Of a stretch of DNA of 64,000 nucleotides, positions 9,010 through 50,542 are shown one piece after another. Both the position numbers and the translations under genes were made by a program. Source of the DNA: an uncultured Candidatus Saccharibacteria bacterium (GTDB lineage Bacteria; Patescibacteriota; Minisyncoccia; 2-02-FULL-40-12; GWA2-44-9); NCBI GenBank assembly GCA_964491455.1, contig CAZBFM010000001.1, forward strand, positions 279,425 through 343,424. The letters run 5' to 3'. The first letter of the stretch is position 1. Each line of letters opens with the position of its first letter. The notes beneath the pieces were generated by a model. That model searched no databases. It was given only the letters and a program-made list of their open reading frames with translations, and was not told the origin of the DNA.

Positions 9010-10464
9010 TTAATAGCTCTGTGCAAAGAGCCAGTGTCTATGCGCCGCCGAGCCACATTTTATACACGTTGCCTCAACGTGCTCATCGATACGACTTAGC
9101 TCAAGCACCCTCGGAGTCGCCTTCGAAGCCTCCTTAATCAAAGCCTCGCAATCGGCATTTTCACACCATGGAGCGCGAATAAACATTTTTTTATTCGTCA
9201 TAATCTCCATGAATTCCTCCCAAGTAGCCACATCGCTCGTGAGCGACAGCTTTGCTGCGTCACTTCGCTCAAGCAATGATGACTGCATATCTGTAAGAAG
9301 CGCCTGAACCCGCTCGACTACGTCCGAGTCAGAAATTGTCGTCTTTGCAAAAGTATCTCGACGCACAGCCGTGACGGTTCGACTTTCAGCCTCACGAGCT
9401 CCGACTTCTAATCTGATCGGCGTACCAGCAAGTTCATGCTCATTAATTCGAAAACCCATAGTATGCTCGAAGTCATCATCGAGCTGTACTCGAACCCCAG
9501 CGCTCGCCAAGCGCTCGACTATGCTCGCTGCATACGCAACTGCCTGGGCTTGTTTTTCCTGATCTTTCCCGCCGAGAGCCAATACAACAACTTGCTTCGG
9601 AGCAACCCGCGGAGGAAGAATAAGCCCAGCATCGTCACCATGCACAAAAATCAAACCACCGATTGAACGCGTCGAAAGACCCCAGCTTGTTTGATGCGCC
9701 GTTGTTTGGCCCCCTTCTTTATTCTGATATGTGACATTAAACACTTCAGCAAAATGAGTACCGAGATAATGGCTCGTCGCAGCCTGCAATGCTTTTCCGT
9801 CTGGTAAGACAATCTCAACTGAATACGTCCTATCAGCACCAGCAAACTTCTCTGCTGAACTCTTCAAGCCGATGTAAGGCGAGATTGCAAATTCCTCTTC
9901 ATAAAACCGCCTGTACCAGGTGAGCGCGCGCAATACCATCTCCATGGCATCAGACTCATCTGCGTGCACGGTATGCCCTTCTTGCCACAAAAACTCACTC
10001 GTTCGAAGAAATGGGTACGTACGTTTTTCCCAACGAACGACATTACACCACTGATTAATCTTCAGAGGCAAATCGCGCCATGATTGAATCCAGTCCGAAA
10101 ATGTTGCGTACATGATTGTCTCTGATGTAGGTCGAATGGCGAGAGGCTCTGCGAGCTCCTCTCCTCCTCCATGAGTAACTACGGCCAACTCCGGTGAGAA
10201 TCCCGCAACGTGCTCTTTCTCACGCTGTAAATAACTCATCGGAATGAGGAGTGGGAAGTAGACGTTTTGCACGCCGTCAGCCTTAAACCAACTATCGAGT
10301 ACTAACTGCACTCGCTCCCAAATGGCATAGCCACGAGGCTTTATAATCATGCACCCTTTCACTGGAGCATATTCAGCGAGTCCAGCTCGAGCAACGACGT
10401 CACTATACCATTCAGCAATATTCTCACTCTTTTTCGTTAGTGCTTTTTTTTCAAATGTAGGCAT
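9010..10464 (-). CDS. proS: Prolyl-tRNA synthetase (archaeal/eukaryotic-like type with C-terminal Zn-binding domain)
   Basis: 484 aa. Class II core with no INS editing insertion, and a C-terminal Cys cluster (…CENADCEALIKEA…CIKCG…). Confidence 0.85.
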   Translation of the reverse strand: MPTFEKKALTKKSENIAEWYSDVVARAGLAEYAPVKGCMIIKPRGYAIWERVQLVLDSWFKADGVQNVYFPLLIPMSYLQREKEHVAGFSPELAVVTHGGGEELAEPLAIRPTSETIMYATFSDWIQSWRDLPLKINQWCNVVRWEKRTYPFLRTSEFLWQEGHTVHADESDAMEMVLRALTWYRRFYEEEFAISPYIGLKSSAEKFAGADRTYSVEIVLPDGKALQAATSHYLGTHFAEVFNVTYQNKEGGQTTAHQTSWGLSTRSIGGLIFVHGDDAGLILPPRVAPKQVVVLALGGKDQEKQAQAVAYAASIVERLASAGVRVQLDDDFEHTMGFRINEHELAGTPIRLEVGAREAESRTVTAVRRDTFAKTTISDSDVVERVQALLTDMQSSLLERSDAAKLSLTSDVATWEEFMEIMTNKKMFIRAPWCENADCEALIKEASKATPRVLELSRIDEHVEATCIKCGSAAHRHWLFAQSY

Positions 10465-10465
10465 T

Positions 10466-11554
10466 TTAGAATAGTTTTATGACGTCCTTAATTGTTACCG
10501 CCACCATCAGCACGAGAAGCACCATGAAACCCAATGCGTGAATGGTGCGCTCTGTTGATTCGCGCAATGATTTTCCGCGAAGCTTCTGCGCGATAATCAT
10601 CACCGCCCGACCTCCATCAAGCGCTGGAAAAGGCAATACATTAAGCACCGCTAAATTCACTGAAATCATCGCCATAAATTGAAGCAAATAAGTGAACCCC
10701 ACGCGAGCGGCTTGTCCCGTCATCGAGGCAATACCGATAGGACCGGAAATATCAGCTCCGAGACTGCCGGTGCGAAATAGCGAGGCTAGTAGTCCACCGT
10801 ATCCAACAAGCGTCGCTGTAAAGAGGTGCCACGTATCAACCACACCCAACCACATACTCTGGTACCACGGATATCGGACCACGCCAGTACGCGCTAGTGA
10901 AATGCCGATGGGTCCTTCGTTTGGATTCGAAGAAGAGCGTAACGCTAGAGGGAGATCCACGGTATCAGCTCCTCTTCGAATCGTGATGATCACCGATGCA
11001 TCCATGTGACTGTATGCAAACTTCTGAACATCTTCCGGAGTCGCAATTCGCTCTAGCACAGAGCGATCGGTTTGCTTGAAACCGAGAATCTCATCTAAGG
11101 GACGTAAACCGGCACGCTCCGCAGGGCTCGACTGCAACACTTGAATAATTTGAACTTTCACATCTCTTGCGCGAGCAGCCATGTCCTCATCAAAGATCCC
11201 AACTCGAAGACCCCCGAAATTGCATATCACGAGCAAAACAGCCGCCAACACTAGATTCATTGCAACACCGGCGAAGACGACAGCGAGCTGCGACCAGAAT
11301 CCTGCAAATCCAAAACTACCTGGTGCAGTACGTTGCTCGCCCTCTTCACCGAAGATACGGACAAATCCGCCAAAAAGTATCGCGTTAATGCTATAGATTG
11401 TACCGTTGTGCTGAAAACTCCACAGTCGAGGTGGGAATCCAAGCCCAAACTCCTCTACCTTCATCCCTGTTTTCTTTGCAACAATAAAATGCCCCGCTTC
11501 ATGCACGAGCACAAGAACCGACAGAACGAGAATAAATACAATAAAGGTGAACAT
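10466..11554 (-). CDS. rseP: Site-2 protease RseP/M50 family zinc metalloprotease with PDZ domain
   Basis: 362 aa. HEAGHF (HExxH) in the first TM, a central PDZ-like region and multiple TM helices. Confidence 0.8.
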   Translation of the reverse strand: MFTFIVFILVLSVLVLVHEAGHFIVAKKTGMKVEEFGLGFPPRLWSFQHNGTIYSINAILFGGFVRIFGEEGEQRTAPGSFGFAGFWSQLAVVFAGVAMNLVLAAVLLVICNFGGLRVGIFDEDMAARARDVKVQIIQVLQSSPAERAGLRPLDEILGFKQTDRSVLERIATPEDVQKFAYSHMDASVIITIRRGADTVDLPLALRSSSNPNEGPIGISLARTGVVRYPWYQSMWLGVVDTWHLFTATLVGYGGLLASLFRTGSLGADISGPIGIASMTGQAARVGFTYLLQFMAMISVNLAVLNVLPFPALDGGRAVMIIAQKLRGKSLRESTERTIHALGFMVLLVLMVAVTIKDVIKLF

Positions 11555-21642: not shown

Positions 21643-23025
21643 TTATAGCTCAAATGACTGTCCCAAGGTGGGAACAACCGCATCCACGCGCAGTTCCCGT
21701 CTCGCGCGTTCCGCAAGCGCGTTCGAAGACTCAAGCTCACCCTGAACGACAAAGCACTTCTTAAGGGAGCTACCCTGGTTTGCTTGACGAATATACTCCA
21801 TTAAGCCGTTTTGATCGGCATGCGCAGAGTAGGCACCAATTGCATGCACATGGCAACGCACTGGAACATCCTGCCCAAATATCGAAACAACCTTTTCTCC
21901 ATCCAAAATTCGGCGACCGAGGGAGCCTTGCACTTGATATCCGATAAAGAGGATTGTGTTTCTACTGTCAGAAAGATATCGAAGCTCATGATGCAGAATC
22001 CTACCCCCCGTGCTCATACCAGATCCTGCAATAATTATTTTAGGTGCCGAAATATCATTGATATGCTTTGACTGCTGAACATCTCCCGTAAACGTAAGCC
22101 ACGGAAAATTAAATATTCCCTGGTTGTCCTTTAGGATTCTACGAGCTCCTTCATTGAAATACGTTGAAAACCGACCATACTCTTTCGTGATGTGTATTGC
22201 TAGCGGACTATCAAGAAAAACCGGCATCTTCGGAAGCTTTCCTTGCTCAAAGAAGGCATCGAGCTCCACTAGCAACTCCTGTGTTCGCTCGACAGCAAAC
22301 GAAGGTATCATGAGGACGCCGTTTCTTTTGTACGTCTCCAATATCACTTCAAGTAATCTCGTGTTGCGCTCGGATCTCGCTTCATGTAATCGACTGCCGT
22401 ACGCAGACTCCACGAGCATATAGTCGACGCCTCGAACATAGTCAATATCTTGCAATAATATCGAAGGCTGATTTCCAATATCACCAGGAAAAACAATACG
22501 TTTTTCAACTCCGTTATCTTGCACTATAAATTCCCAAGCAGTGGATCCAAGAACATGCCCCGAGTCGTGGCCTTGCACAACGACGCTTGCATTGAGCTTC
22601 AGGCGTTGGCGGTAGGAAACGCCTCGAAATAGAGCGAGCGATCGCTCAAGATCCTCGCGATCATACATTGGAGCATAATTAAAATTGCGAGCCTCCGTTA
22701 CCACTTTATCGAGCGTATCCGGAAGAGCGACCGCTACAATCGAAGCCGTCGGTTCACTAGCATAAATGACGCCACGAAAACCCTCACGATACAGCTTCGG
22801 AATGCGCCCCATATGGTCTACATGGCTGTGCGTTATAAATACATAATCGATCTTCGATGCATCGTATCCAAATGCCTGAAAATTCATTTCATCGCCATAC
22901 CGAGAACCCTGAATCATTCCACAATCGATGATAATTCTCAGTCCACCGACTTCAAGCAAGTAATTTGCACCCGTTACGTGGGTTGCGCCACCAAAAAATG
23001 TGAGCTTCATACTATCAGTATACAC
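21643..23025 (-). CDS. Beta-CASP metallo-beta-lactamase-fold ribonuclease (RNase J-like)
   Basis: 460 aa. HxHxDH motif (ITHSHVDHMG) with beta-CASP motifs downstream. Confidence 0.6.
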   Translation of the reverse strand: MYTDSMKLTFFGGATHVTGANYLLEVGGLRIIIDCGMIQGSRYGDEMNFQAFGYDASKIDYVFITHSHVDHMGRIPKLYREGFRGVIYASEPTASIVAVALPDTLDKVVTEARNFNYAPMYDREDLERSLALFRGVSYRQRLKLNASVVVQGHDSGHVLGSTAWEFIVQDNGVEKRIVFPGDIGNQPSILLQDIDYVRGVDYMLVESAYGSRLHEARSERNTRLLEVILETYKRNGVLMIPSFAVERTQELLVELDAFFEQGKLPKMPVFLDSPLAIHITKEYGRFSTYFNEGARRILKDNQGIFNFPWLTFTGDVQQSKHINDISAPKIIIAGSGMSTGGRILHHELRYLSDSRNTILFIGYQVQGSLGRRILDGEKVVSIFGQDVPVRCHVHAIGAYSAHADQNGLMEYIRQANQGSSLKKCFVVQGELESSNALAERARRELRVDAVVPTLGQSFEL

Positions 23026-23859
23026 CTACAAGCCGAGAACGATTGAGCATAAGTAGCCAAGGATGGCAGAAAGGGCGATAGGCGGAAGTGCGGCCATCGG
23101 AGCTGCTTCTTTTTGACGCAAGAACAGCCACTGCATGACAAGAACACCGACGAGAGAAAACAGCACGATAATCACAGCAGCGTCCGTCGACTGCCTAAGA
23201 ACCGAAATCGCTAAAATAAGTGGCAACGTTACATCCCCCGATCCAAGCATCATCACTTGGTTTGAGTTAAGAGCATCTGCTTTTTTGAGCAATAAGCCTC
23301 GAAACGTTGTAGGCACAAGAAATCCGAAAATAATTCCAGATGAAAGCATATGATTCGCCATCACGATCATGTGCTTGGTCCGATACACAGAAACAATGTC
23401 ATAGATTGCAAAGAGTGCTAGCAGCGCACACGCCACGAGCGGAGACAATGAAGTTCCTAGAAGTCCTGCGATACCACTAACACCGAGAGTGGTGATGATA
23501 TTGTGGATCCAAACGCGCGGTATCACAGAAAGCGCTGTAACACCCGCAAGAGCAAAGCCAATACTTGCAGGTAACGACAACCATGCCGAATATACAAATT
23601 GCGCCCCGGACACGAGTGCAATCACTAAAATAACAGGCAACGCGATTCGTGTCGCCCGAGAGAAACGTATCATCGCATACGTGAAGCACACGAATACTAC
23701 TGCAAACAAAAGAGCATTCTCTGGCGTTGATTCGATGTTCTGCAATACGCTCGTCGAAACTACTTGCTGATAATGAGCCCATGAAGAAAGTAACGAGATG
23801 CTCGCGATGGCACAATAGAGCACCACGATAGTAGTTGTCATACGGAGCGCGCTTTTCAT
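23026..23859 (-). CDS. Candidate GxGD-type intramembrane aspartyl protease (presenilin/signal-peptide-peptidase-like, A22-like)
   Basis: 277 aa, about 9 TM. YD inside a TM helix (aa 153-154) and LGSGD in a later TM (D209) 55 aa downstream. P-x-L (PPIAL) in the last helix. The motif order matches the presenilin-homolog topology. Confidence 0.4.
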   Translation of the reverse strand: MKSALRMTTTIVVLYCAIASISLLSSWAHYQQVVSTSVLQNIESTPENALLFAVVFVCFTYAMIRFSRATRIALPVILVIALVSGAQFVYSAWLSLPASIGFALAGVTALSVIPRVWIHNIITTLGVSGIAGLLGTSLSPLVACALLALFAIYDIVSVYRTKHMIVMANHMLSSGIIFGFLVPTTFRGLLLKKADALNSNQVMMLGSGDVTLPLILAISVLRQSTDAAVIIVLFSLVGVLVMQWLFLRQKEAAPMAALPPIALSAILGYLCSIVLGL

Positions 23860-24314
23860 TCTCGTACAATAACAACCCCCGACTCACCCGCATCGGAAGA
23901 ATTATAATACCCAAACACGCCTATCTCAGAAAAAGTATAGGAAAAATAGCTTGATGGCTGAATAGATCCAACACTATCAAATCGCGGATTTGATTCACTA
24001 GCTTGTAGCTGAGCGATCACGCGCAACGGTAGAGGATTTTCATTCTTCCAACGCACCGTATCCCCAACATGAATACGCAAATTCGTTGGGCTAAATACAC
24101 CATACCGATAGCTGATTGTATAGACTCTTGATTCACGGTCATTCGTAGTTGTGGGCGTCACAGTCTCAAGCGGTACCTCAATCGGACGAGTACCGAGGAG
24201 CATAATTGCGATGCCCATGAGAATCATGGTGCCCAAAATTGCCGGCCATAGATGAGGGCGATCACGCTGCTTTTCTGATTTCATAATCTGCTCGGCAATG
24301 GGATGTTGCACCAT
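23856..24314 (-). CDS. Type-II membrane-anchored cupredoxin-like domain protein (the usual Cys/His copper ligands are not evident)
   Basis: N-terminal basic tail plus a single TM (…HLWPAILGTMILMGIAIMLLG…), then a beta-rich domain with the plastocyanin-like segment RIHVGDTVRWKNEN. There is a 4-nt overlap with the downstream protease gene. Start trimmed to MVQ/MKSEK to avoid overlap with the upstream gene; the track ORF extends to 24392. Confidence 0.35.
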   Translation of the reverse strand: MVQHPIAEQIMKSEKQRDRPHLWPAILGTMILMGIAIMLLGTRPIEVPLETVTPTTTNDRESRVYTISYRYGVFSPTNLRIHVGDTVRWKNENPLPLRVIAQLQASESNPRFDSVGSIQPSSYFSYTFSEIGVFGYYNSSDAGESGVVIVRE

Positions 24315-24369: not shown

Positions 24370-24993
24370 CTAGTGGAGCGGGATGTGAGCAACGGAGCGC
24401 CGTATTTCTTGAATTCTCTCCTTTATGTCCCCAAAAAAGGCACCGTCCGGGAGAGTCTCAAAGCACTCACGAAATGCCCATAGACGCTCAGGATCATCTC
24501 GTAGCTCTATCAGGGAAGCGCACACCGCTTCCGGAAGAATTTCGGTGGCGAAGTGATCTGCGTATCTGCCAAAAATCATGTACAGCATCATGTAACGAAG
24601 CACATTCCTGGCGGATCGTAGATCGCTACTTCCAAAGCACACCCTCCAGCACCGCAATAATTCGATTACGGACTGGGGTGTTAGTAGATCCTGCTTCTTT
24701 GACGGACGACCGTGATAATACCTAGTAAGGCACCAGGTGCGTACAATTCGAGCTCCATCAAATGAATGCAGCGTGCGATGTATGGCATCCACGGCATGAA
24801 ACACCTCGCGAACCGTAAGGGCACCAAAGAGGCGATGCCACGCCGTATGCGACGCTTCATTCCACGGAAATAGATTGTATTCGGTGTCCGCTCCGTCTCG
24901 ACTCACCGGTACCATATGATGCATTCGCGCATTCGGGTGTGCTACTTTGTACGGCTCGCGAGCGCGAGCATACAGGGAGGAAGTTCTCCTCAC
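24370..24993 (-). CDS. Protein with N-terminal HNH-like (His-Me finger) motif lacking the zinc-binding cysteines, plus an uncharacterised C-terminal domain
   Basis: The segment HHMVPVSRDGADTEYNLFPWNEASHTAWH fits the HNH core pattern HH..P…GG…NL…H…H. The start is probably at an internal Met (MHHM…). Confidence 0.35.
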   Translation of the reverse strand: MRRTSSLYARAREPYKVAHPNARMHHMVPVSRDGADTEYNLFPWNEASHTAWHRLFGALTVREVFHAVDAIHRTLHSFDGARIVRTWCLTRYYHGRPSKKQDLLTPQSVIELLRCWRVCFGSSDLRSARNVLRYMMLYMIFGRYADHFATEILPEAVCASLIELRDDPERLWAFRECFETLPDGAFFGDIKERIQEIRRSVAHIPLH

Positions 24994-31353: not shown

Positions 31354-32766
31354 CTACTCCGTAGTAATTTTCAGGTGCAGCTCTCGCAATTGATGTGAGG
31401 AAATTGGAGAGGGTGAATGCATCATAAGATCGCGAGCATCGCCCGTCTTAGGAAACGCTAGCACCTCGCGAATGTTTGGCTCATTGTGTAAGAGTGCGAT
31501 GAGTCGATCCCAACCCCAGGCAATCCCTCCGTGCGGCGGAGCACCATGAGAAAATGCGGTCAGCATGTGACCAAAATTTTCATCTATAGTGGAATTCTCA
31601 AATCCCATAATACGAAATACCGCGCGAAGTCCGTCGGATGTATGGTTGCGGATGGAGCCACCACCTATCTCCCAACCGTTTAATACGATATCGTACTGGC
31701 TTGTGAGAATATTTCCAATATTGCTTGCCGAAAGCAAGTCAGACATGAACTCTGGCTTCGGCGCGGAAAATGGATTGTGTGTAAACGTCCATCCCTCATC
31801 CGTCTTCTCAAAAAATGGAAAATCAACGACCCAACAAAACGCGAGCACATTTGGATCATTCTTATCCTCTCGAACATCGGGTCGATCTGTCCCGTATGTT
31901 CCCATAGCTTCGGCGAAGCTCATGCGGGGAAACGGAATTTGCTGAATGCGTTTTTCAGGATAGAGCTTCGTTACGAAATCGATGAGAAGCGCTTCGTTAA
32001 GCGCCATAACATCCTCGCGCTCGACAAAACTCATCTCTAAATCGAGTTGCGTAAATTCTGGTTGGCGATCGCCACGCGTGTCCTCATCTCGGAAGCAACG
32101 AGCAAATTGAAAATATCGCTCCATTCCCGCCACCATGAGCAATTGCTTGTACTGCTGCGGCGATTGAGGAAGCGCATAAAACGATCCGGCATATAATCTG
32201 CTTGGAACCACATAATCACGTGCACCCTCGGGTGTACTTTTGGTGAGCATCGGCGTCTCTACTTCGAGAAACCCCTTCGCGTCAAGCCAATTGCGAATGA
32301 ACAATTGCCCCTTGTGTCGCGCCATCATGTTGCGCGCCATACGGGGACGACGCAAATCGAGATATCGCCACTCATGGCGCGTATCTTCGCCGATTTCATA
32401 TCCATCAGTATCAAGCGGCATTGGAGGTGTCTGCGATGCATTGAGAACCTCTAATTCTCGAGGTTCAAATTCAACAGAACCCGTAGGGATATCGGCATTG
32501 CGCATTTTCTCTGGTCGCTCTTTGATGAGCCCCTTCAGGCGTACAACCCATTCATTACGAAGCGTCTGAGCGAGTTCGTAGCACGAAGGTGTAAATGGCC
32601 CAAACACGACCTGAATGACGCCGGTACGATCGCGAAGGTCGACGAACACGAGCTTGCCATGGTCTCGTCGATTGACGACCCAGCCAAAAAGCTCAATTTC
32701 TTCACCAATACGATCCTTTGTTTCGAGGATGGATATCTGTTTCATAGAATACGTGCATCCTATCAC
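31354..32766 (-). CDS. aspS: Aspartyl-tRNA synthetase (short archaeal-like form, possibly non-discriminating)
   Basis: 470 aa. N-terminal OB fold, class IIb core and the AspRS-type QSPQ loop (…ALPQSPQQYKQ…). Confidence 0.8.
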   Translation of the reverse strand: MIGCTYSMKQISILETKDRIGEEIELFGWVVNRRDHGKLVFVDLRDRTGVIQVVFGPFTPSCYELAQTLRNEWVVRLKGLIKERPEKMRNADIPTGSVEFEPRELEVLNASQTPPMPLDTDGYEIGEDTRHEWRYLDLRRPRMARNMMARHKGQLFIRNWLDAKGFLEVETPMLTKSTPEGARDYVVPSRLYAGSFYALPQSPQQYKQLLMVAGMERYFQFARCFRDEDTRGDRQPEFTQLDLEMSFVEREDVMALNEALLIDFVTKLYPEKRIQQIPFPRMSFAEAMGTYGTDRPDVREDKNDPNVLAFCWVVDFPFFEKTDEGWTFTHNPFSAPKPEFMSDLLSASNIGNILTSQYDIVLNGWEIGGGSIRNHTSDGLRAVFRIMGFENSTIDENFGHMLTAFSHGAPPHGGIAWGWDRLIALLHNEPNIREVLAFPKTGDARDLMMHSPSPISSHQLRELHLKITTE

Positions 32767-32792
32767 GTCAACGTCAGAATGCCAAGGGCGTA

Positions 32793-32821
32793 TTGACGTT
32801 TTGGATGACTTGTTTTATTGT
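32793..32821 (+). promoter_or_regulatory. Possible sigma70-like promoter for the + strand coiled-coil gene, with an inverted repeat (CGTCAA…TTGACG) overlapping the -35
   Basis: TTGACG, a 17-nt spacer, then TATTGT, about 20 nt upstream of GTG 32843. Weak -10. Confidence 0.25.
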
Positions 32822-32842
32822 ATTCTTGTCCAAGGAGAACAC

Positions 32843-33124
32843 GTGGCAAAACAAAAGAAATCTCTGGAATGTCCCCGCAATAACGCAGAGATCACCCTCA
32901 TGCGCGAGCTTCGCGAAACGAAGAACCGACTCGACGCGGTGAAAGAAGATAGAGAGATCAAATTGCGCAAAATTGAAGGCCTTGAATCTGAGAATTCAAT
33001 TCTAAAGCAGCAAATCAAGGGCCATCTTGAAGCGCTCAGTGAAAAGGATGCTGAAGCACAAGGATTTGAGAGGGGCGTGACGAGAATCCTGGAAGTTATA
33101 CTGGATCGTCTCGTCCGGAACTAA
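32843..33124 (+). CDS. Small coiled-coil protein (about 93 aa) of unknown function
   Basis: GTG start 5 nt after AAGGAG (32832-32837). Heptad-rich sequence (…LRETKNRLDAVKEDREIKLRKIEGLESENSILKQQIKGHLEALSEKDAEAQ…). Ends at a clean terminator. The track ORF 32615..33124 is over-extended through the divergent promoter. Confidence 0.4.
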   Translation: MAKQKKSLECPRNNAEITLMRELRETKNRLDAVKEDREIKLRKIEGLESENSILKQQIKGHLEALSEKDAEAQGFERGVTRILEVILDRLVRN

Positions 33125-33145
33125 CGGCTCTCATTTTTCGGGCTC

Positions 33146-33172
33146 ATCGGGACCTCACGGTCCCGATTTTTT
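33146..33172 (+). terminator. Rho-independent terminator
   Basis: ATCGGGACC-tcac-GGTCCCGAT followed by tttttt. Confidence 0.65.
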
Positions 33173-33185
33173 CTATGACAATACT

Positions 33186-33563
33186 GTGCTATGGTGTCAT
33201 CCAGGAGAGCTAGTTGTGAACTTTGATAATTACTACTATTACTGTCCGCGTTGTAAACGCGTAGTGAATCCAACATGGTATGTGGGTCATCGAACCTACA
33301 GCATGAGCAGTCTCACAGCTCCTTACTTCATGTGCAGCGAGTGTCGCACCATCGGTGCCTACCCTCCACACGTAAAGAATACGATTGCGGAATGGCGACG
33401 CGCGTTGTACAGCAGAAAGCGAGTGCCGAGCTGTCGAAATATGTACACGATTGTCATGCGAGATCTCGATCTGATCATGTCCGGAATCTGCGCGCAATCG
33501 GGATATCGTAGAGTACGTTGCCGCATTCCACAGCGTCCACCGGAGCATGAGACGAGGTCATGA
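33186..33563 (+). CDS. Small Cys4 zinc-ribbon protein, paralog A
   Basis: CPRC…(26 aa)…CSEC with a basic C-terminus. A GTG at 33217 preceded by AGGAGA is a better start than the ATG at 33186. Confidence 0.4.
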   Translation: MLWCHPGELVVNFDNYYYYCPRCKRVVNPTWYVGHRTYSMSSLTAPYFMCSECRTIGAYPPHVKNTIAEWRRALYSRKRVPSCRNMYTIVMRDLDLIMSGICAQSGYRRVRCRIPQRPPEHETRS

Positions 33564-33880
33564 CGACGACGATGCAGTATGCTTGTCCGAAATGCAATAC
33601 CAGGCGATATCCGGAACGTGTAATTATTTCTCGCGGCCACTCCGCTCGTCGATGGGAACTCCCGTACCTCATGTGTGGACAATGCCGGCTCATAGGGATC
33701 GATATCGTACTCGCGCGTCGAACCCTACAAGGACTTGTTAAGGAAACGCAGGTCACGTCATCATCATCGAGCCTCACAGAGGAGATGCTATCGCGACTTG
33801 AAGATCATATCGCGTACTTCTGTCGAGATGCCGGCTATACGCGCGCTCGCTTCAAGCGCGTTCGCACAAAGACTCTCTAG
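33560..33880 (+). CDS. Small Cys4 zinc-ribbon protein, paralog B
   Basis: CPKC…(26 aa)…CGQC with a basic C-terminus (…GYTRARFKRVR…). It aligns to paralog A (YxCPxCxxxxxP…PYxMCxxCRxIG) and overlaps paralog A by 4 nt. Confidence 0.4.
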   Translation: MTTTMQYACPKCNTRRYPERVIISRGHSARRWELPYLMCGQCRLIGIDIVLARRTLQGLVKETQVTSSSSSLTEEMLSRLEDHIAYFCRDAGYTRARFKRVRTKTL

Positions 33881-33910
33881 GGAGTCTTTTCTTTTTTCGC
33901 CGTGAATTCA

Positions 33911-33940
33911 AAATTAAAAAGCTGCTACGAACGTAGCAGC
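33911..33940 (-). terminator. Rho-independent terminator for the 33947-34396 gene
   Basis: Hairpin GCTGCTACG-aa-CGTAGCAGC (33921-33940). On the minus strand it is followed by the U-tract complementary to aaaattaaaaa (33911-33920). Confidence 0.55.
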
Positions 33941-33946
33941 AGCTGT

Positions 33947-34396
33947 CTAGTTTCCGAACATTGCCCACGCCGGCTGGATAGCACAAATACTGTAGTGATG
34001 TCCCGCCACATTGCCCCACGCCTCCGTGAAAACTCTCCAGCCCTTTTCATTCGATCCATCTTGATCCGGTTCTCGACCATACTCCACCTGATCCAACCAG
34101 CCCGCGACAAATACCGTAGCGCCTTCGAGATCAAGCGGATATGGCAAGGCTATCGCGTCGCGCTCCGCTGACCATAACAGCAGTCGCGTCGGCACCCCAC
34201 CGCTATCTTGCTTTATGTGTTCGAAATGATGCGTCGTCACACCAGCATCGTTCTGAAAGTATTCCACCTCATATCGGAGCGGGAACATTTTGTAATGGCT
34301 TGCCTTCCCGCCGGGAGCATTCGGCCAGATCAGCCTCAGTGCACCCGCTAAACCTTCATGACCCTGACTTGTTACGTCAATCGTTCTATTATACAT
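33947..34396 (-). CDS. Hypothetical protein (149 aa), no recognisable domain
   Basis: Clean ORF with its own terminator immediately downstream of tRNA-Lys. His-rich segments (…TTHHFEHIKQD…, …GHHYSICAIQ…). Confidence 0.35.
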   Translation of the reverse strand: MYNRTIDVTSQGHEGLAGALRLIWPNAPGGKASHYKMFPLRYEVEYFQNDAGVTTHHFEHIKQDSGGVPTRLLLWSAERDAIALPYPLDLEGATVFVAGWLDQVEYGREPDQDGSNEKGWRVFTEAWGNVAGHHYSICAIQPAWAMFGN

Positions 34397-34456
34397 CTGA
34401 TCATGTCTCCTCGTTATTCTAAAACAAGAACGTATTGTGAATGGACCCAGAATGTC

Positions 34457-34529
34457 CGCCCTGCTGGATTCGAACCAGCGACCTTCTCCTTAAAAGGGAG
34501 CAGCTCTACCAACTGAGCTAAGGGCGGTT
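34457..34529 (-). tRNA. tRNA-Lys (anticodon UUU). 3' CCA is not genome-encoded (ends …A-CA).
   Basis: Reverse complement folds as a cloverleaf. Acceptor CCGCCCT/AGGGCGG, U8, D-stem GCTC/GAGC, anticodon loop CUUUUAA, 5-nt variable loop, T-arm GCTGG-TTCGAAT-CCAGC, discriminator A. Confidence 0.8.
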
Positions 34530-34576: not shown

Positions 34577-36196
34577 CTACATATTGAGCGCACGACGAAT
34601 AAGGGCTTTCAATTCGTCATCTGAGGTGGACACCACACCGGTTGTCGTAGCTTGTGGCTTCTCTTTGATTTCAACGGCTCGTCCATTGAATCCCACAGCG
34701 CCCCCCTTCAGCGCATCGAGACTGGCTGTCTGCTGCGGCGCAGGTCGAGGACCCGAAGCTTGTAACGGCGGTCGCTGATGCGAACCTTGCCCCTGAGGAC
34801 GCTGTGGTTGTTGCATCGGTCGTGCGACGGACTGGGATGGGAATGGACTATCCCGGCGCGGCGTTGCTGGCCTATCACTCGCTGCTCGGGGCACGTATTG
34901 AGGCTGTTCAAGTGGCGCACGCCATTTTGCGATCGCCTCTTCCACTTCCGCTCGCGGCCGAGCGTACATAGTGCGCGAGTATTCGACCACTTCATCCCGA
35001 GTACTTTGCTCGAGCTTCTTTGGCGTGTCCATCGTCATAGCAGAAAACGCATGACTCGTGACTCCATCGATCATTAATTTGAGATACATCTGACGGAATC
35101 CAAGGTTCACAATGTCGGTTGCCATAAATTCAGGGGCGAATTCTTTCTCCATCAACTCAGCATCTTCTGCTCCAATGCGAAACGATATGATCGTTCCCAC
35201 ATTGCCGAAGACCGCGTCGGCAACCTCTTCCGCAAGCTGCTTAATATATTGATGAGCTACAATCAGAGACAAATTGAATTTACGCGCTTCGGAGAGGATG
35301 TTCGCAAATGAACCCGTTGCAAAGTTTTGGAACTCATCAACAATCAACGTGAAGTCCGCACGTTCATGCTTTGGTATATCGACGCGCGACATCGCCGCAA
35401 GCTGAATCTTGGTGATAATCATCGCACCAAGAAGTCGAGATGCGTCTTCACCAATACGTCCCTTTGAAATATCCACGAGGATTATTTTGCGCTGATCCAT
35501 GGCTTCGCGCATATTGAAGGTAGACCGCTCCTGCCCAACTAGATTGCGAATGAGAGAGTTGGAAACAAACTGACCAACCTTGTTTTGTATAGCAGCTGTT
35601 GCCTCTGACGCAAACTTGTCAGTATATTTCGCGAATTCTTGTGTCCAGAATGCTTTCACTTCCGGATCCGTCACTTGGTCAACTATCTTCTTTCGATACT
35701 CCTTATCTGCCAACATTCTATTGATGCCTAGGAGCGTAGATCCGGGAGCCTCGAGGAGAGCGAGGATCGTATTATTGAGGATGTATTCCATACGAGCCGA
35801 CCACGCATCGAGCCAAATCTTTTTGAACACCGCCATCATGCCATCAGCAACGAGATGACGCTGATCAAAGCTCACACTCTCCATGACATTAAATCCAACT
35901 GGAAACTGCATGTCGGCAGGATTAATAAAAATGACATCTTTGACACGCTCAGGAGGGATATAATCCAATAAATCATATACAGGATCTCCGTGCGGATCCA
36001 TAAAACAGACACCTCTGCCATCGCGAATATCTTGAATGGCAAGCATCTTTAGGAGCTCCGATTTGCCCATACCAGATTTTCCGATCACATACATATGCCT
36101 GCGACGATCATCGAGCTTGATGCCGAAATGCTGAATCGCATTTCGAAATTCAGTTTGACCGAAAAGCACTACATTGTTTTCTGGTTCGAATGTCAT
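34577..36196 (-). CDS. Soluble type-IV-coupling-protein-like ATPase (VirD4/TraG/TraD family, FtsK-HerA superfamily)
   Basis: 539 aa, no TM. HMYVIGKSGMGKSE (Walker A), DPHGD, LIVDEFQNF (Walker B) and VAHQYIKQL in T4CP order. A Pro/Gln-rich tail of about 120 aa at the C-terminus. Confidence 0.55.
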   Translation of the reverse strand: MTFEPENNVVLFGQTEFRNAIQHFGIKLDDRRRHMYVIGKSGMGKSELLKMLAIQDIRDGRGVCFMDPHGDPVYDLLDYIPPERVKDVIFINPADMQFPVGFNVMESVSFDQRHLVADGMMAVFKKIWLDAWSARMEYILNNTILALLEAPGSTLLGINRMLADKEYRKKIVDQVTDPEVKAFWTQEFAKYTDKFASEATAAIQNKVGQFVSNSLIRNLVGQERSTFNMREAMDQRKIILVDISKGRIGEDASRLLGAMIITKIQLAAMSRVDIPKHERADFTLIVDEFQNFATGSFANILSEARKFNLSLIVAHQYIKQLAEEVADAVFGNVGTIISFRIGAEDAELMEKEFAPEFMATDIVNLGFRQMYLKLMIDGVTSHAFSAMTMDTPKKLEQSTRDEVVEYSRTMYARPRAEVEEAIAKWRAPLEQPQYVPRAASDRPATPRRDSPFPSQSVARPMQQPQRPQGQGSHQRPPLQASGPRPAPQQTASLDALKGGAVGFNGRAVEIKEKPQATTTGVVSTSDDELKALIRRALNM

Positions 36197-47418: not shown

Positions 47419-47880
47419 TCAATTCCCATGGCACTTCTTAAACCTCTTACCACTCCCGCAAAGGCAGGGTGGATTTTGCGCTAAAAAATTTTTGTTAGCA
47501 GGAAACAGGTTTTCCGGAAGCTGGGAAAGGTCAAACCATTTCATTTCCGAAAATTTTTCCGGTTCCATTAAAGAAGGTTGTCCGCTAAAGCTGGTTGGCT
47601 TGGTATGAACAGTGATGTAATGCTTATTTTCAGCTTCGTAAACGTCGCTGGTGACTCCCAAGATTTCTATATCTTTTACCTCTATCCCCGCTTCTTCCTT
47701 GGCTTCTCTTTGGGCAGATTGAAGGAAGCTTTCTCCGTATTCTATATGGCCGCCCGGCGGGCACCAGGTGCCGTTGGCGTGTTTGGATTTGCGTAGAAAA
47801 AGGAGCAGCTTGCCGTTTTCTACAATGTAAACGCCAATTGCTCCTTTGGGCCTAAGTTTGTCTTGGTCTTCATTTCCCAT
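47419..47880 (-). CDS. NUDIX hydrolase with C-terminal SEC-C zinc-binding motif
   Basis: Nudix box [27 protein letters not shown]-terminus [15 protein letters not shown]. The start is probably MGNEDQ (ATG 8 nt before the secA stop). The track ORF extends to 47925. Confidence 0.7.
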
Positions 47881-50542
47881 GGCACTTCTTGTATTTCTTT
47901 CCAGAGCCACAAGGGCACGGATCATTACGCCCGATAGTATCTGATTGTAGGTTCGGATTGGAAGCGTGATCGTCTTTCGATGTCAGAAGTTGTGTTGCAG
48001 GATCTTCCGATAGGTTAGGGCGACTCTCGACTCCATTTCGAAGCGATGCGGGCCCCGGAGCTACCTGGACCTTAAAGATAATGCCTGCAACGCGAGAAGC
48101 GAGAGTAATCGCAAGCGAACCATACATTCGTTGCGCTTCGATCTTGTACTCGACTAAAGGATCGCGTTGCCCATACGCACGCAATCGTACAGACTCGCGA
48201 AGATGATCCATTGCTTCGATATGGTCCACCCATAGATCGTCAATCGTGCGTACCACAACCGCTCTCTCGATCTGTCGCATCTGCACAGCCCCCATACGAT
48301 CTTCGTGCAGCGCATATAACCGACGCATCTCCACGACAAGATAGTCAGTGAGCTCATCTGCATCGCGATACTCTTTTGCTAGAAGATCCGGAAAGAGCGA
48401 ATCAGGAAATGGCGCGATCGAACGGAGGGTATCGACGATCTCTCGAATACTCAATTCGCCTGTCTCTTCGTTTCTATGCGCTCGCACAATGGCCTGCAGC
48501 TCGCCCTCCAAATATCCCAGGACTGTCTCGTGGATGTCTGGCGAAGAAAGTATCGATCGACGAATGCCATACATGGTTTCACGATGTTTATTCATGACAT
48601 CGTCATACTCAAGTACGTATTTCCTAGAATCGAAGTTATGACCCTCAATTCGACTCTGCGCTTGTGCTATTGATCGGGATACGATGCTGTTCTCGATAAC
48701 ATCCTCATCGGTGACGCCCAGGGTATTCATAATATTCTTCAAGCGATCTCCACTAAATATTCGCACAAGCTCATCTTCAGTGGAAACATAAAACTGGCTT
48801 GCCCCAGGATCTCCCTGGCGACCCGCGCGACCACGGAGCTGATCGTCAATGCGCCGCGCTTCATGACGCTCCGTGCCAAACACGCACAATCCGCCAAGTT
48901 CTCTCACCTCGCGCGCCTCATCCTCATCGATCGGATTACCACCAAGAATGATATCAACGCCGCGCCCAGCCATGTTCGTTGCAACCGTCACAGCGCCCCT
49001 ACGTCCAGCCTGCGCTATGATTTCAGCTTCTTGTTCGTGATTCTTTGCGTTTAGCACCTGATGCTTTACGCCTATCGACGCCAGCAACACCGAGAGCATT
49101 TCATTTTTTTCAATAGAAACGGTTCCCACAAGCACTGGTTGCCCTAGCTCGTGACGACGCTTCACTTCATGTGCGAGTGCCTTGAATTTTCCCAATTCAC
49201 TCTTATAGATGCGATCGGGCAAATCCTTTCGCAAGAGCGGTTTATGCGTGGGGACGACGACTACATTGAGGCTATATACTTTGTGAAACTCCTCTGCAGA
49301 TGTGCGCGCAGTACCCGTCATTCCGGAAAGCTTTCCATAGAGCCTGAAATAATTTTGGAACGTTACCGTTGCCAGCGTTTTGCTTTCGCGTTGGATGAGA
49401 ACGCCTTCTTTTGCCTCCACTGCCTGGTGAAGACCGTCAGACCATCGGCGTCCCGGCATGAGGCGCCCCGTGAATTCATCCACGATAATAACCTCATTAT
49501 CCTTTACGACATACTCTTTGTCTCGACGGAAAAGCACATGCGCACGTAACGCCTGCTCAAGATGATGCACATATCGAGCCCCACCCTCCTCATACATATC
49601 AGCGATACCAAGACGCTTTTGTATCTTTTCAATACCATCGTCGGTAATACTTACTGCTTTTAGCTTCTCATCGATGGTATAGTCCTCACCTTCTTTGAGT
49701 ATTGGCACTGCACGCGCGAATGACGAATATAAAGCGCCCGACTCTTCATCAGGAGCAGAAATGATAAGAGGGGTGCGCGCCTCATCGATAAGGATTGAGT
49801 CGACCTCATCAACGATTGCAAATGCATGCGGAGTCACTTGTCGCTGAGACATATCTTCCAATCTTGGCGCCATATTATCGCGAAGATAGTCAAACCCATA
49901 TTCATTATTGGTTCCATACGTAATATCCGCTTGATATGCTTCGCGCCGACTCACCGGCCGAAGAAACTCATGAACGACTCGAAACGATCCAGTCTCATCG
50001 CGCTCATGATCACTCTCCGCGAGATCGGCAGGCTTCACATGGGAGGAGTCATAGATGTACGAAGCCTCATGATTGAGCACGCTCACTGTTAGGCCTAAGG
50101 CATCATAAATCTGACCCATCCACGTCGCATCACGTCGACTGAGGTAATCATTCACAGTAACAACATGCACCCCATTCCCCGATAACGCATTGAGATACGC
50201 TGGAAGCGTAGCAACCAATGTCTTACCTTCACCGGTCGACATTTGCGCGATTGCACCAGAGTGCAGCACCATACCTCCAATGAGTTGCTCATCAAAATGT
50301 CGCTTACCAGATTTGCGCAGTGATGCCTCACGAACTGCAGCAAACGCCTCAGGCAGCAGCTCATCTAGTGTCGAACCAGTCCGCAATCGCTCCCTAAAAT
50401 CAATCGTTAACGAGCGGAGCTCGTCATCAGATAACGATCGCATATGAGCCTCGAGAGCATTTATTTTTACAACTGAACTCGCGTACGATCGGATGATACG
50501 CGCATTTGCGTCAGGTAAAAACTTCGATAGAAATTCAAACAT
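47870..50542 (-). CDS. secA: Preprotein translocase ATPase SecA
   Basis: 890 aa. DEAD-like motor, PPXD, HSD/HWD, and a C-terminal SEC-C zinc finger [15 protein letters not shown]. Confidence 0.95.

Follow-up and report, generated by a model that had tools for sequence, protein, structure and literature searches.

The window, i.e., the whole stretch of 64,000 nucleotides analysed here, encodes a 277-residue polytopic protein (PSH) that is a genuine member of the presenilin/SPP (A22, GxGD) superfamily, as judged by homology, motifs, and fold. With a probability of roughly 0.6, its gene specifies a stand-alone PSH-type protease whose native substrate is not CUP, the membrane-anchored cupredoxin-like protein encoded directly upstream. 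Presenilin-type proteases have been studied mainly for γ-secretase and Alzheimer's disease, and the archaeal homologue PSH serves as the main simple model of these enzymes. In two reports on archaeal PSH, the substrates are heterologous only (PMC9263693, PMC10679502), and the function of the PSH homologue from Haloferax is given as unknown (PMC9263693). Bacterial homologues of presenilin receive little discussion, and the membrane proteins encoded by their conserved neighbours can be tested as candidate substrates or partners. The window adds one member to a family whose representatives, including those from CPR bacteria, are already annotated, and it contains nothing mechanistically new; the idea that the neighbour is a substrate is currently disfavoured.

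The features of the PSH locus are as follows, all of them on the minus strand:

23026-23859, minus strand: PSH gene, 277 aa, a presenilin-family (PF06550/A22) intramembrane aspartyl protease with a predicted N-in/C-out topology (open reading frame, profile, and model)
23398-23403, minus strand: codons of Y153-D154, the first catalytic Asp motif, in TM6 (aligned to YD of 4HYC, invariant)
23233-23247, minus strand: codons of L205-G-S-G-D209, the GxGD motif, at the start of TM7 (aligned to GMGD of PSH, invariant)
23077-23091, minus strand: codons of A257-L-P-P-I261, the equivalent of the PAL motif, before TM9 (aligned to LPPL of PSH)
23856-24314, minus strand: CUP gene, 152 aa, membrane-anchored and cupredoxin-like (its stop codon overlaps the PSH start; ATGA, 23856-23859)
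24189-24251, minus strand: signal-anchor TM helix of CUP, aa 22-42, with a basic tail on its N-side (AlphaFold helix 23-40)
23859-24128, minus strand: cupredoxin-fold domain of CUP, aa 63-152, without type-1 copper ligands (fold and ligand alignment)
21643-23025, minus strand: gene of a β-CASP/MBL ribonuclease (bCASP), directly after the PSH stop codon, in the same tightly packed string

PSH contains three motifs, Y153-D154, G206-S-G-D209, and P259-P-I-A-L, with a spacing of 55 aa between the two Asp residues. Across 27 aligned homologues sharing 29–53% identity with the window protein, Y153, D154, L205–D209, and M255–I261 (M255-AALPPI-261) are invariant. Since all three motifs persist at this level of divergence, the pattern is not due to chance, and the invariance of the Asp motifs would argue that catalysis has been retained. 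The initial annotation had proposed a presenilin/SPP-like GxGD protease on the basis of YD, LGSGD (55 aa further on), and PPIAL. All three are indeed present, and the profile, the match to 4HYG, and the fold described below agree with the proposal.

Among the Pfam families, the window protein matched PF06550 (“Signal-peptide peptidase, presenilin aspartyl protease”) over residues 46–274, with a score of 79.7 bits (gathering cut-off, 23.9 bits) and an E-value of 3.3e-22. No other Pfam family was matched at E ≤ 1, including Peptidase_A24, transporters, and PF04258, which settles in favour of presenilin the profile search that had been suggested as a check. With NF041679, the NCBIfam model of archaeal PSH, the score was 91.7 bits, below the equivalog cut-off of 125. 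By this profile score, the window protein is a family member and not an equivalog of archaeal PSH; because the cut-off was missed, the same function cannot be assumed. A sequence search of the PDB gave a sole match, PSH of Methanoculleus marisnigri (4HYC/4HYG/4Y6K), with an E-value of 2.2e-14. In the alignment with 4HYC, AIYDIVSVYRTKHMI of the window protein pairs with AVYDAISVYRTKHMI, MLGSGD with VMGMGD, and ALPPIALSAILGY with GLPPLNGGAILGF.

An AlphaFold2 model of PSH, built on the homologue alignment, consists of nine TM helices (pLDDT 88.3, pTM 0.85). Y153 and D154 are located in helix 140–161, so that YD lies inside a TM helix, as had been claimed from the sequence. The GxGD motif is found at strand 202–206 and helix 207–221, with D209 at the start of the latter, and the third motif is associated with helix 258–274. 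In a Foldseek search with this model, significant matches were confined to PSH, SPPL2a, and presenilin-1, with a probability of 1.0 and TM-scores of 0.57–0.74. The highest TM-score, 0.74, was that of substrate-bound presenilin-1 (PS1), and the best E-value that of PSH; all subsequent matches had probabilities below 0.1. A geometry in which D154 and D209 face each other would be implied by the fold match only.

The orientation of PSH in the membrane could be predicted from its charges. The K+R count is 13.3 on the side of the N-terminus and loops L2, L4, L6, and L8 and 1.3 on the other side, a bias found in 74/74 PSH sequences. According to the positive-inside rule, this distribution places the N-terminus and the TM6–TM7 loop in the cytoplasm. 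The predicted topology, N-in/C-out with a cytoplasmic TM6–TM7 loop, is that of presenilin and not that of SPP. In such an arrangement, the catalytic dyad would consist of D154 from TM6 and D209 from TM7, close to the membrane's cytoplasmic half, and the TM helices of single-pass proteins would enter PSH laterally before being cut. Two short strands in the model, residues 179–183 and 202–206, flank the TM6–TM7 loop. By analogy, these modelled strands may correspond to the substrate-clamping strands of γ-secretase, in which presenilin-1 forms a hybrid sheet with the substrate (PMC10679502). As a default guess, the role of PSH is to turn over proteins of the envelope or membrane or to process them into mature form. 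It is not the only intramembrane protease of this genome, since a gene for an M50 site-2 protease is present at 10466-11554 in the same window.

The window has the gene content of an ordinary bacterial chromosome: it encodes MreB/C, PBP2, MurG, FtsW, MraY, a Mur ligase, FemAB, SecA, and SecD/F, together with RRF, GreA, Lon, and the M50 protease, and nearly all of its genes are on one strand. The bacterial origin proposed at the outset is thus borne out by MurG, FtsW, MraY, SecA/D/F, RRF, and MreB. Over 8.8 kb, the DNA of the window is 94.8% identical to a metagenome-assembled genome of Candidatus Paceibacterota (JAGOPO010000001.1). The host belongs to Paceibacterota, a lineage of the candidate phyla radiation (CPR, Patescibacteria). 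Some Paceibacteria and Yanofskybacteria have been reported to live in symbiosis with methanogens (PMC9600506). Related loci belong without exception to Patescibacteria (80/80; labelled Paceibacterota, Yanofskybacteria, or Parcubacteria), and the PSH clade occurs in at least 95 species-level genomes. When 1.84 billion representative sequences were searched with a profile, 274 clusters (50% identity) had E ≤ 1e-30, and with the limit at E ≤ 1e-3 the number rose to 1,573. The distant relatives have about 300–308 aa and also match PF04258; one of them is adjoined by a gene for a tRNA-splicing endonuclease, which indicates that this relative lies on an archaeal contig. Enzymes of this type thus form a large, old, vertically inherited clade in bacteria (Paceibacterota). 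In NCBI and JGI, the CPR relatives are named “presenilin family intramembrane aspartyl protease” or “presenilin-like A22 family membrane protease”. A literature search combining presenilin with CPR, Patescibacteria, or Parcubacteria found no joint mention.

CUP starts at the ATG at 24314, the start codon common to its relatives, and its gene overlaps that of PSH by 4 nt (ATGA), as had been noted initially. An AlphaFold model shows a K/R-rich N-terminal tail, one hydrophobic helix, a Pro/Thr-rich linker, and a C-terminal β-sandwich. In Foldseek, the domain resembles amicyanin, plastocyanin, and a cupredoxin from Nitrosopumilus, with TM-scores of 0.72–0.79. Sequence matches were weak (TIGR02656, E 3.6e-6; 1BXU, E 4e-6), and CUP remained below all cut-offs of Pfam and NCBIfam, including those of TIGR02656 and TIGR02657. 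The positions of the His, Cys, His, and Met copper ligands are occupied by L/I, N, D/N, and E/T, respectively, and the domain lacks Cys in 127/128 distinct family members; a type-1 copper site is therefore absent from CUP. Even without a metal site, the domain has 27 invariant positions. CUP variants with HPxH gave only matches below threshold in Pfam. Across the family, K+R amount to 2.5 before the TM helix and 0.34 after it, and from these counts the anchor is predicted to be N-in (type II). The initial description of the upstream protein, i.e., a basic tail, a type-II anchor, and a plastocyanin-like domain devoid of obvious copper ligands, thus agrees with the model, the structural matches, the charge bias, and the loss of Cys and the other ligands.

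The pairing of the two genes had been presumed to be conserved in related genomes, and this proved correct. A CUP homologue lies directly upstream of PSH on the same strand in 73/80 species-level genomes; reciprocally, PSH is found downstream of CUP in 60 of the 65 metagenomic loci with enough downstream sequence. About half of the loci have a third conserved gene, “mid”, between CUP and PSH. It encodes a ~92-aa single-TM protein that follows the pattern MKNPLTxQVES-TM-KNFNSD...YPxxPW, for which Pfam gave only matches below threshold. This gene is patchy across the PSH tree and absent from the window. Among 140 dereplicated loci, the gap between CUP and PSH is ≤32 nt in 51 of the 60 loci without “mid”, and in those with “mid” the median is about 10–15 nt at each CUP-(mid)-PSH junction. 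No unrelated gene was found within CUP-(mid)-PSH in ~120 dereplicated loci. The junction of PSH and bCASP is equally tight (median gap 9 nt; 0 nt in the window), so the conserved unit is CUP-(mid)-PSH-bCASP. This unit sits in a larger syntenic block that extends from the Mur ligase to Lon, and insertions are common at the Mur-CUP and bCASP-Lon junctions, unlike within the unit. CUP-(mid)-PSH-bCASP is a tightly packed string that is probably co-transcribed. In a promoter and terminator scan, counts were not clearly above those of shuffled sequence, and no convincing terminator was found between CUP, PSH, and bCASP. As these genomes are compact and co-directional, adjacency by itself says little about a functional link.

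The initial annotation had gone further and interpreted the two genes as a dedicated protease–substrate module, or a module of regulated intramembrane proteolysis (RIP). In such a module, PSH would cut the CUP anchor, thereby releasing the ectodomain or clearing the anchor. The evidence does not support this reading, which is regarded as unlikely. One of its arguments was that an N-in substrate suits an SPP-type enzyme. The topology of SPP is opposite to that of presenilin, and this inversion is thought to underlie the cleavage of type II as against type I substrates (PMC2947513). With PSH predicted to be presenilin-type, by the charge bias found in all 74 sequences, the argument is reversed: by analogy, a presenilin orientation would imply N-out/C-in substrates, and the N-in CUP would be the wrong way round, antiparallel to the canonical presenilin substrate geometry. 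These orientation rules derive from the eukaryotic enzymes, presenilin and SPP, and a prokaryotic enzyme need not obey them.

The genomic evidence has to be weighed in the same manner. The 4-nt overlap and the position of CUP directly upstream of PSH, seen from both genes, speak for a substrate module, as does the fact that the sole gene ever found between them encodes another conserved membrane protein. However, the synteny is lineage-wide and comprises the whole block, and the tight packing is shared with bCASP and hence not specific to the pair. Moreover, both genes have been lost independently. In four metagenomic loci (L105, L144, L145 = L152, and L160), PSH is cleanly absent while Mur-CUP-(mid)-bCASP-Lon is kept; conversely, four genomes (L033, L074, L069, and L078) keep PSH without CUP at the locus. 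Distance-matrix (mirror-tree) correlation, a weak test, gave r values of 0.70 for PSH-CUP, 0.74 for PSH-bCASP, and 0.77 for PSH-Mur, with a partial r of 0.16 for PSH-CUP, i.e., no excess co-evolution of PSH and CUP over bCASP and Mur. At the one archaeal PSH locus inspected (L161), neither CUP nor “mid” was found. In favour of the module, there is no competing candidate, and no native substrate of a prokaryotic PSH is reported in the literature consulted (PMC9263693). No single one of orientation, losses, co-evolution, and the archaeal locus decides the question, but each of them speaks against an obligate module. CUP is more likely a co-transcribed envelope protein than a dedicated substrate of PSH.

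A broader formulation treats CUP-(mid)-PSH as a functional membrane module of three parts, found specifically in Paceibacteria, with CUP and/or “mid” acting as substrate or partner subunit; it is likewise improbable. The uninterrupted arrangement in ~120 loci would be compatible with such a functional link, unlikely as the link is. If it were true, no native substrate or partner subunit of a prokaryotic presenilin homologue would have been identified before CUP and/or “mid”, and presenilin-type substrate recognition could be studied in a natural system of simple genetics. The specific version in which CUP and “mid” are accessory or gatekeeper subunits of a small PSH complex, loosely like those of γ-secretase, is very doubtful. 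Both proteins cross the membrane once and have a small extracytoplasmic domain, their genes remain tightly spaced with PSH, and the 27 invariant positions of the metal-free CUP domain would be consistent with a subunit role. Yet archaeal PSH needs no partner for its activity in vitro (PMC2947513), the “mid” gene is patchy and missing from the window, PSH and CUP have each been lost independently, and their partial co-evolution is low.

That the 277-residue protein is no presenilin-type protease at all is barely credible, whether one takes it for a type IV prepilin peptidase (A24), for a transporter, or for a relic without catalytic activity: GxGD also occurs in A24 peptidases and the NCBIfam equivalog cut-off was missed, but Pfam offered no other family, every significant fold match is to PSH, SPPL, or presenilin, and both Asp motifs are invariant across 29–53% identity. 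The A24 and transporter identities are ruled out, as neither profile nor fold matches them.

The preferred reading, a stand-alone PSH-type protease, is best appreciated by comparison with known systems. The closest is PSH of M. marisnigri, MCMJR1 (IAP; PDB 4HYG/4HYC/4Y6K). Both proteins belong to PF06550, are of similar length, and have nine TM helices, and their motifs are aligned: YD in TM6, GxGD at TM7, and LPP(L/I) before TM9. The TM2–TM3 and TM6–TM7 loops are rich in K/R in both, hence the same predicted orientation. Each appears to stand alone, the genes of nicastrin, APH-1, and PEN-2 being absent nearby. The two share only ~25% identity, however, and the TM6–TM7 loop is shorter in the window protein. 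Their hosts also differ, a bacterium (CPR) in one case and an archaeon in the other, and the CUP and “mid” neighbours are conserved with the CPR PSH, whereas they were not seen at one archaeal locus.

PS1 in γ-secretase (PDB 6IDF and 6IYC) resembles the window protein with a TM-score of up to 0.74. It shares the predicted N-in/C-out topology with a cytoplasmic TM6–TM7 loop, and in its substrate-bound form two short strands flank this loop, as in the PSH model. Yet the window protein has just 13% identity to PS1 and lacks both the long autoproteolysed loop and the accessory subunits. SPP and SPPL2a (PDB 9K92) have the same GxGD aspartyl I-CLiP fold, SPP is active without partners, and it is the SPP class whose substrates are N-in (type II) helices, the kind to which the CUP anchor belongs. 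SPP is membrane-inverted relative to presenilin (PMC2947513), whereas the CPR PSH is predicted to be presenilin-oriented. The CPR protein also has no match to PF04258.

The classical bacterial GxGD proteases are the A24 type IV prepilin peptidases, which, like the window protein, are polytopic membrane proteases with two Asp residues. In A24 enzymes, according to the initial annotation, the first Asp is situated in a loop and not in a YD-containing helix. The window protein matches them in neither sequence nor fold. As for CUP, it has the cupredoxin β-sandwich of plastocyanin and amicyanin and retains the strand motif GDTV-x-W/F-x-N, but it is distinguished from them by the replacement of the copper ligands and by its N-terminal membrane anchor.

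In about half of all loci compared, a conserved gene, here called mid, sits between the gene for CUP, the membrane-anchored cupredoxin-like protein, and that for PSH, the presenilin-family intramembrane aspartyl protease. Its product is a protein of ~92–98 residues with one transmembrane (TM) segment and the sequence pattern MKNPLTxQVES-TM-KNFNSD...ERxLIxxW...YPxxPW. Examples from related genome or metagenome loci (L numbers) are as follows:

L059:3691-3969, plus strand, mid
L016:3561-3857, plus strand, mid
L017:3661-3942, plus strand, mid

Charge counts leave the membrane orientation of the mid protein ambiguous, and a Pfam comparison assigned it to no family. The distribution of mid over the PSH tree is patchy, and a search of the window did not find it. 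CUP and PSH are also lost separately. In the metagenome loci L105, L144, L145/L152, and L160, PSH is cleanly lost, with retention of CUP, (mid), the downstream beta-CASP ribonuclease gene, and Lon, the far end of the syntenic block that starts with the Mur ligase; the converse case, PSH without CUP, is found in the genome loci L033, L074, L069, and L078. Many of the metagenome-assembled genomes with the Paceibacteria-type block (L002, L003, L006, L007, and others) are labelled ‘uncultured Candidatus Saccharibacteria bacterium’, a label that is probably generic or incorrect for such records.

Among the 128 CUP family members, 16 carry a His-rich insert (DPHPxHN) together with a [YF]HN motif, including the following two homologues:

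L020:3046-3537, His-rich CUP homologue
L056:3393-3842, His-rich CUP homologue

The matches of the His-rich members to Cupredoxin_1 (PF13473) fall below threshold. Judging from these motifs, the variants might possess a non-canonical metal site; the His residues in question are absent from the window CUP.

Two genes flank CUP and PSH in the window:

21643-23025, minus strand, beta-CASP/MBL ribonuclease, directly downstream of PSH
24370-24993, minus strand, 207-aa ORF, upstream of CUP

The only match of the 207-aa ORF is a faint one to HNH (E 0.048); it is kept in the same place in many related loci, yet is often missing. For the ribonuclease, the top NCBIfam model was ‘type VII CRISPR-associated Cas14’, at 371 bits against a cut-off of 800, and the aCPSF1 model gave 272 bits (cut-off 580). 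Since both scores lie far under their cut-offs, identity as a Cas protein was rejected, and the enzyme is, by sequence, a generic archaeal-like beta-CASP ribonuclease.

Elsewhere in the window, the stretch 32766-34454 is devoid of long minus-strand genes; possibly a small piece of mobile or foreign DNA has inserted here beside tRNA-Lys. The two small ORFs inside the stretch look paralogous.

33186-33563, plus strand, small ORF with paired CxxC motifs
33560-33880, plus strand, small ORF with paired CxxC motifs
34454-34527, tRNA-Lys, adjoining the stretch
34577-36196, VirD4/TrwB-like ATPase, near the stretch

Four further genes were annotated:

47419-47925, minus strand, NUDIX hydrolase ORF ending in a SEC-C zinc-binding motif
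47870-50542, minus strand, SecA, just upstream of the NUDIX hydrolase ORF
10466-11554, minus strand, RseP-like M50 site-2 protease (PF02163, 182 bits)
9010-10464, minus strand, prolyl-tRNA synthetase with a C-terminal ProRS-C_1 domain

The NUDIX hydrolase ORF and the SecA gene overlap by 56 nt, and the SEC-C motif resembles the one at the SecA C-terminus. The M50 protease is the second intramembrane protease of the 64-kb window, besides PSH. The ProRS-C_1 domain is typical of archaeal/eukaryotic-type prolyl-tRNA synthetases; the synthetase would then be another archaeal-like gene of this genome.
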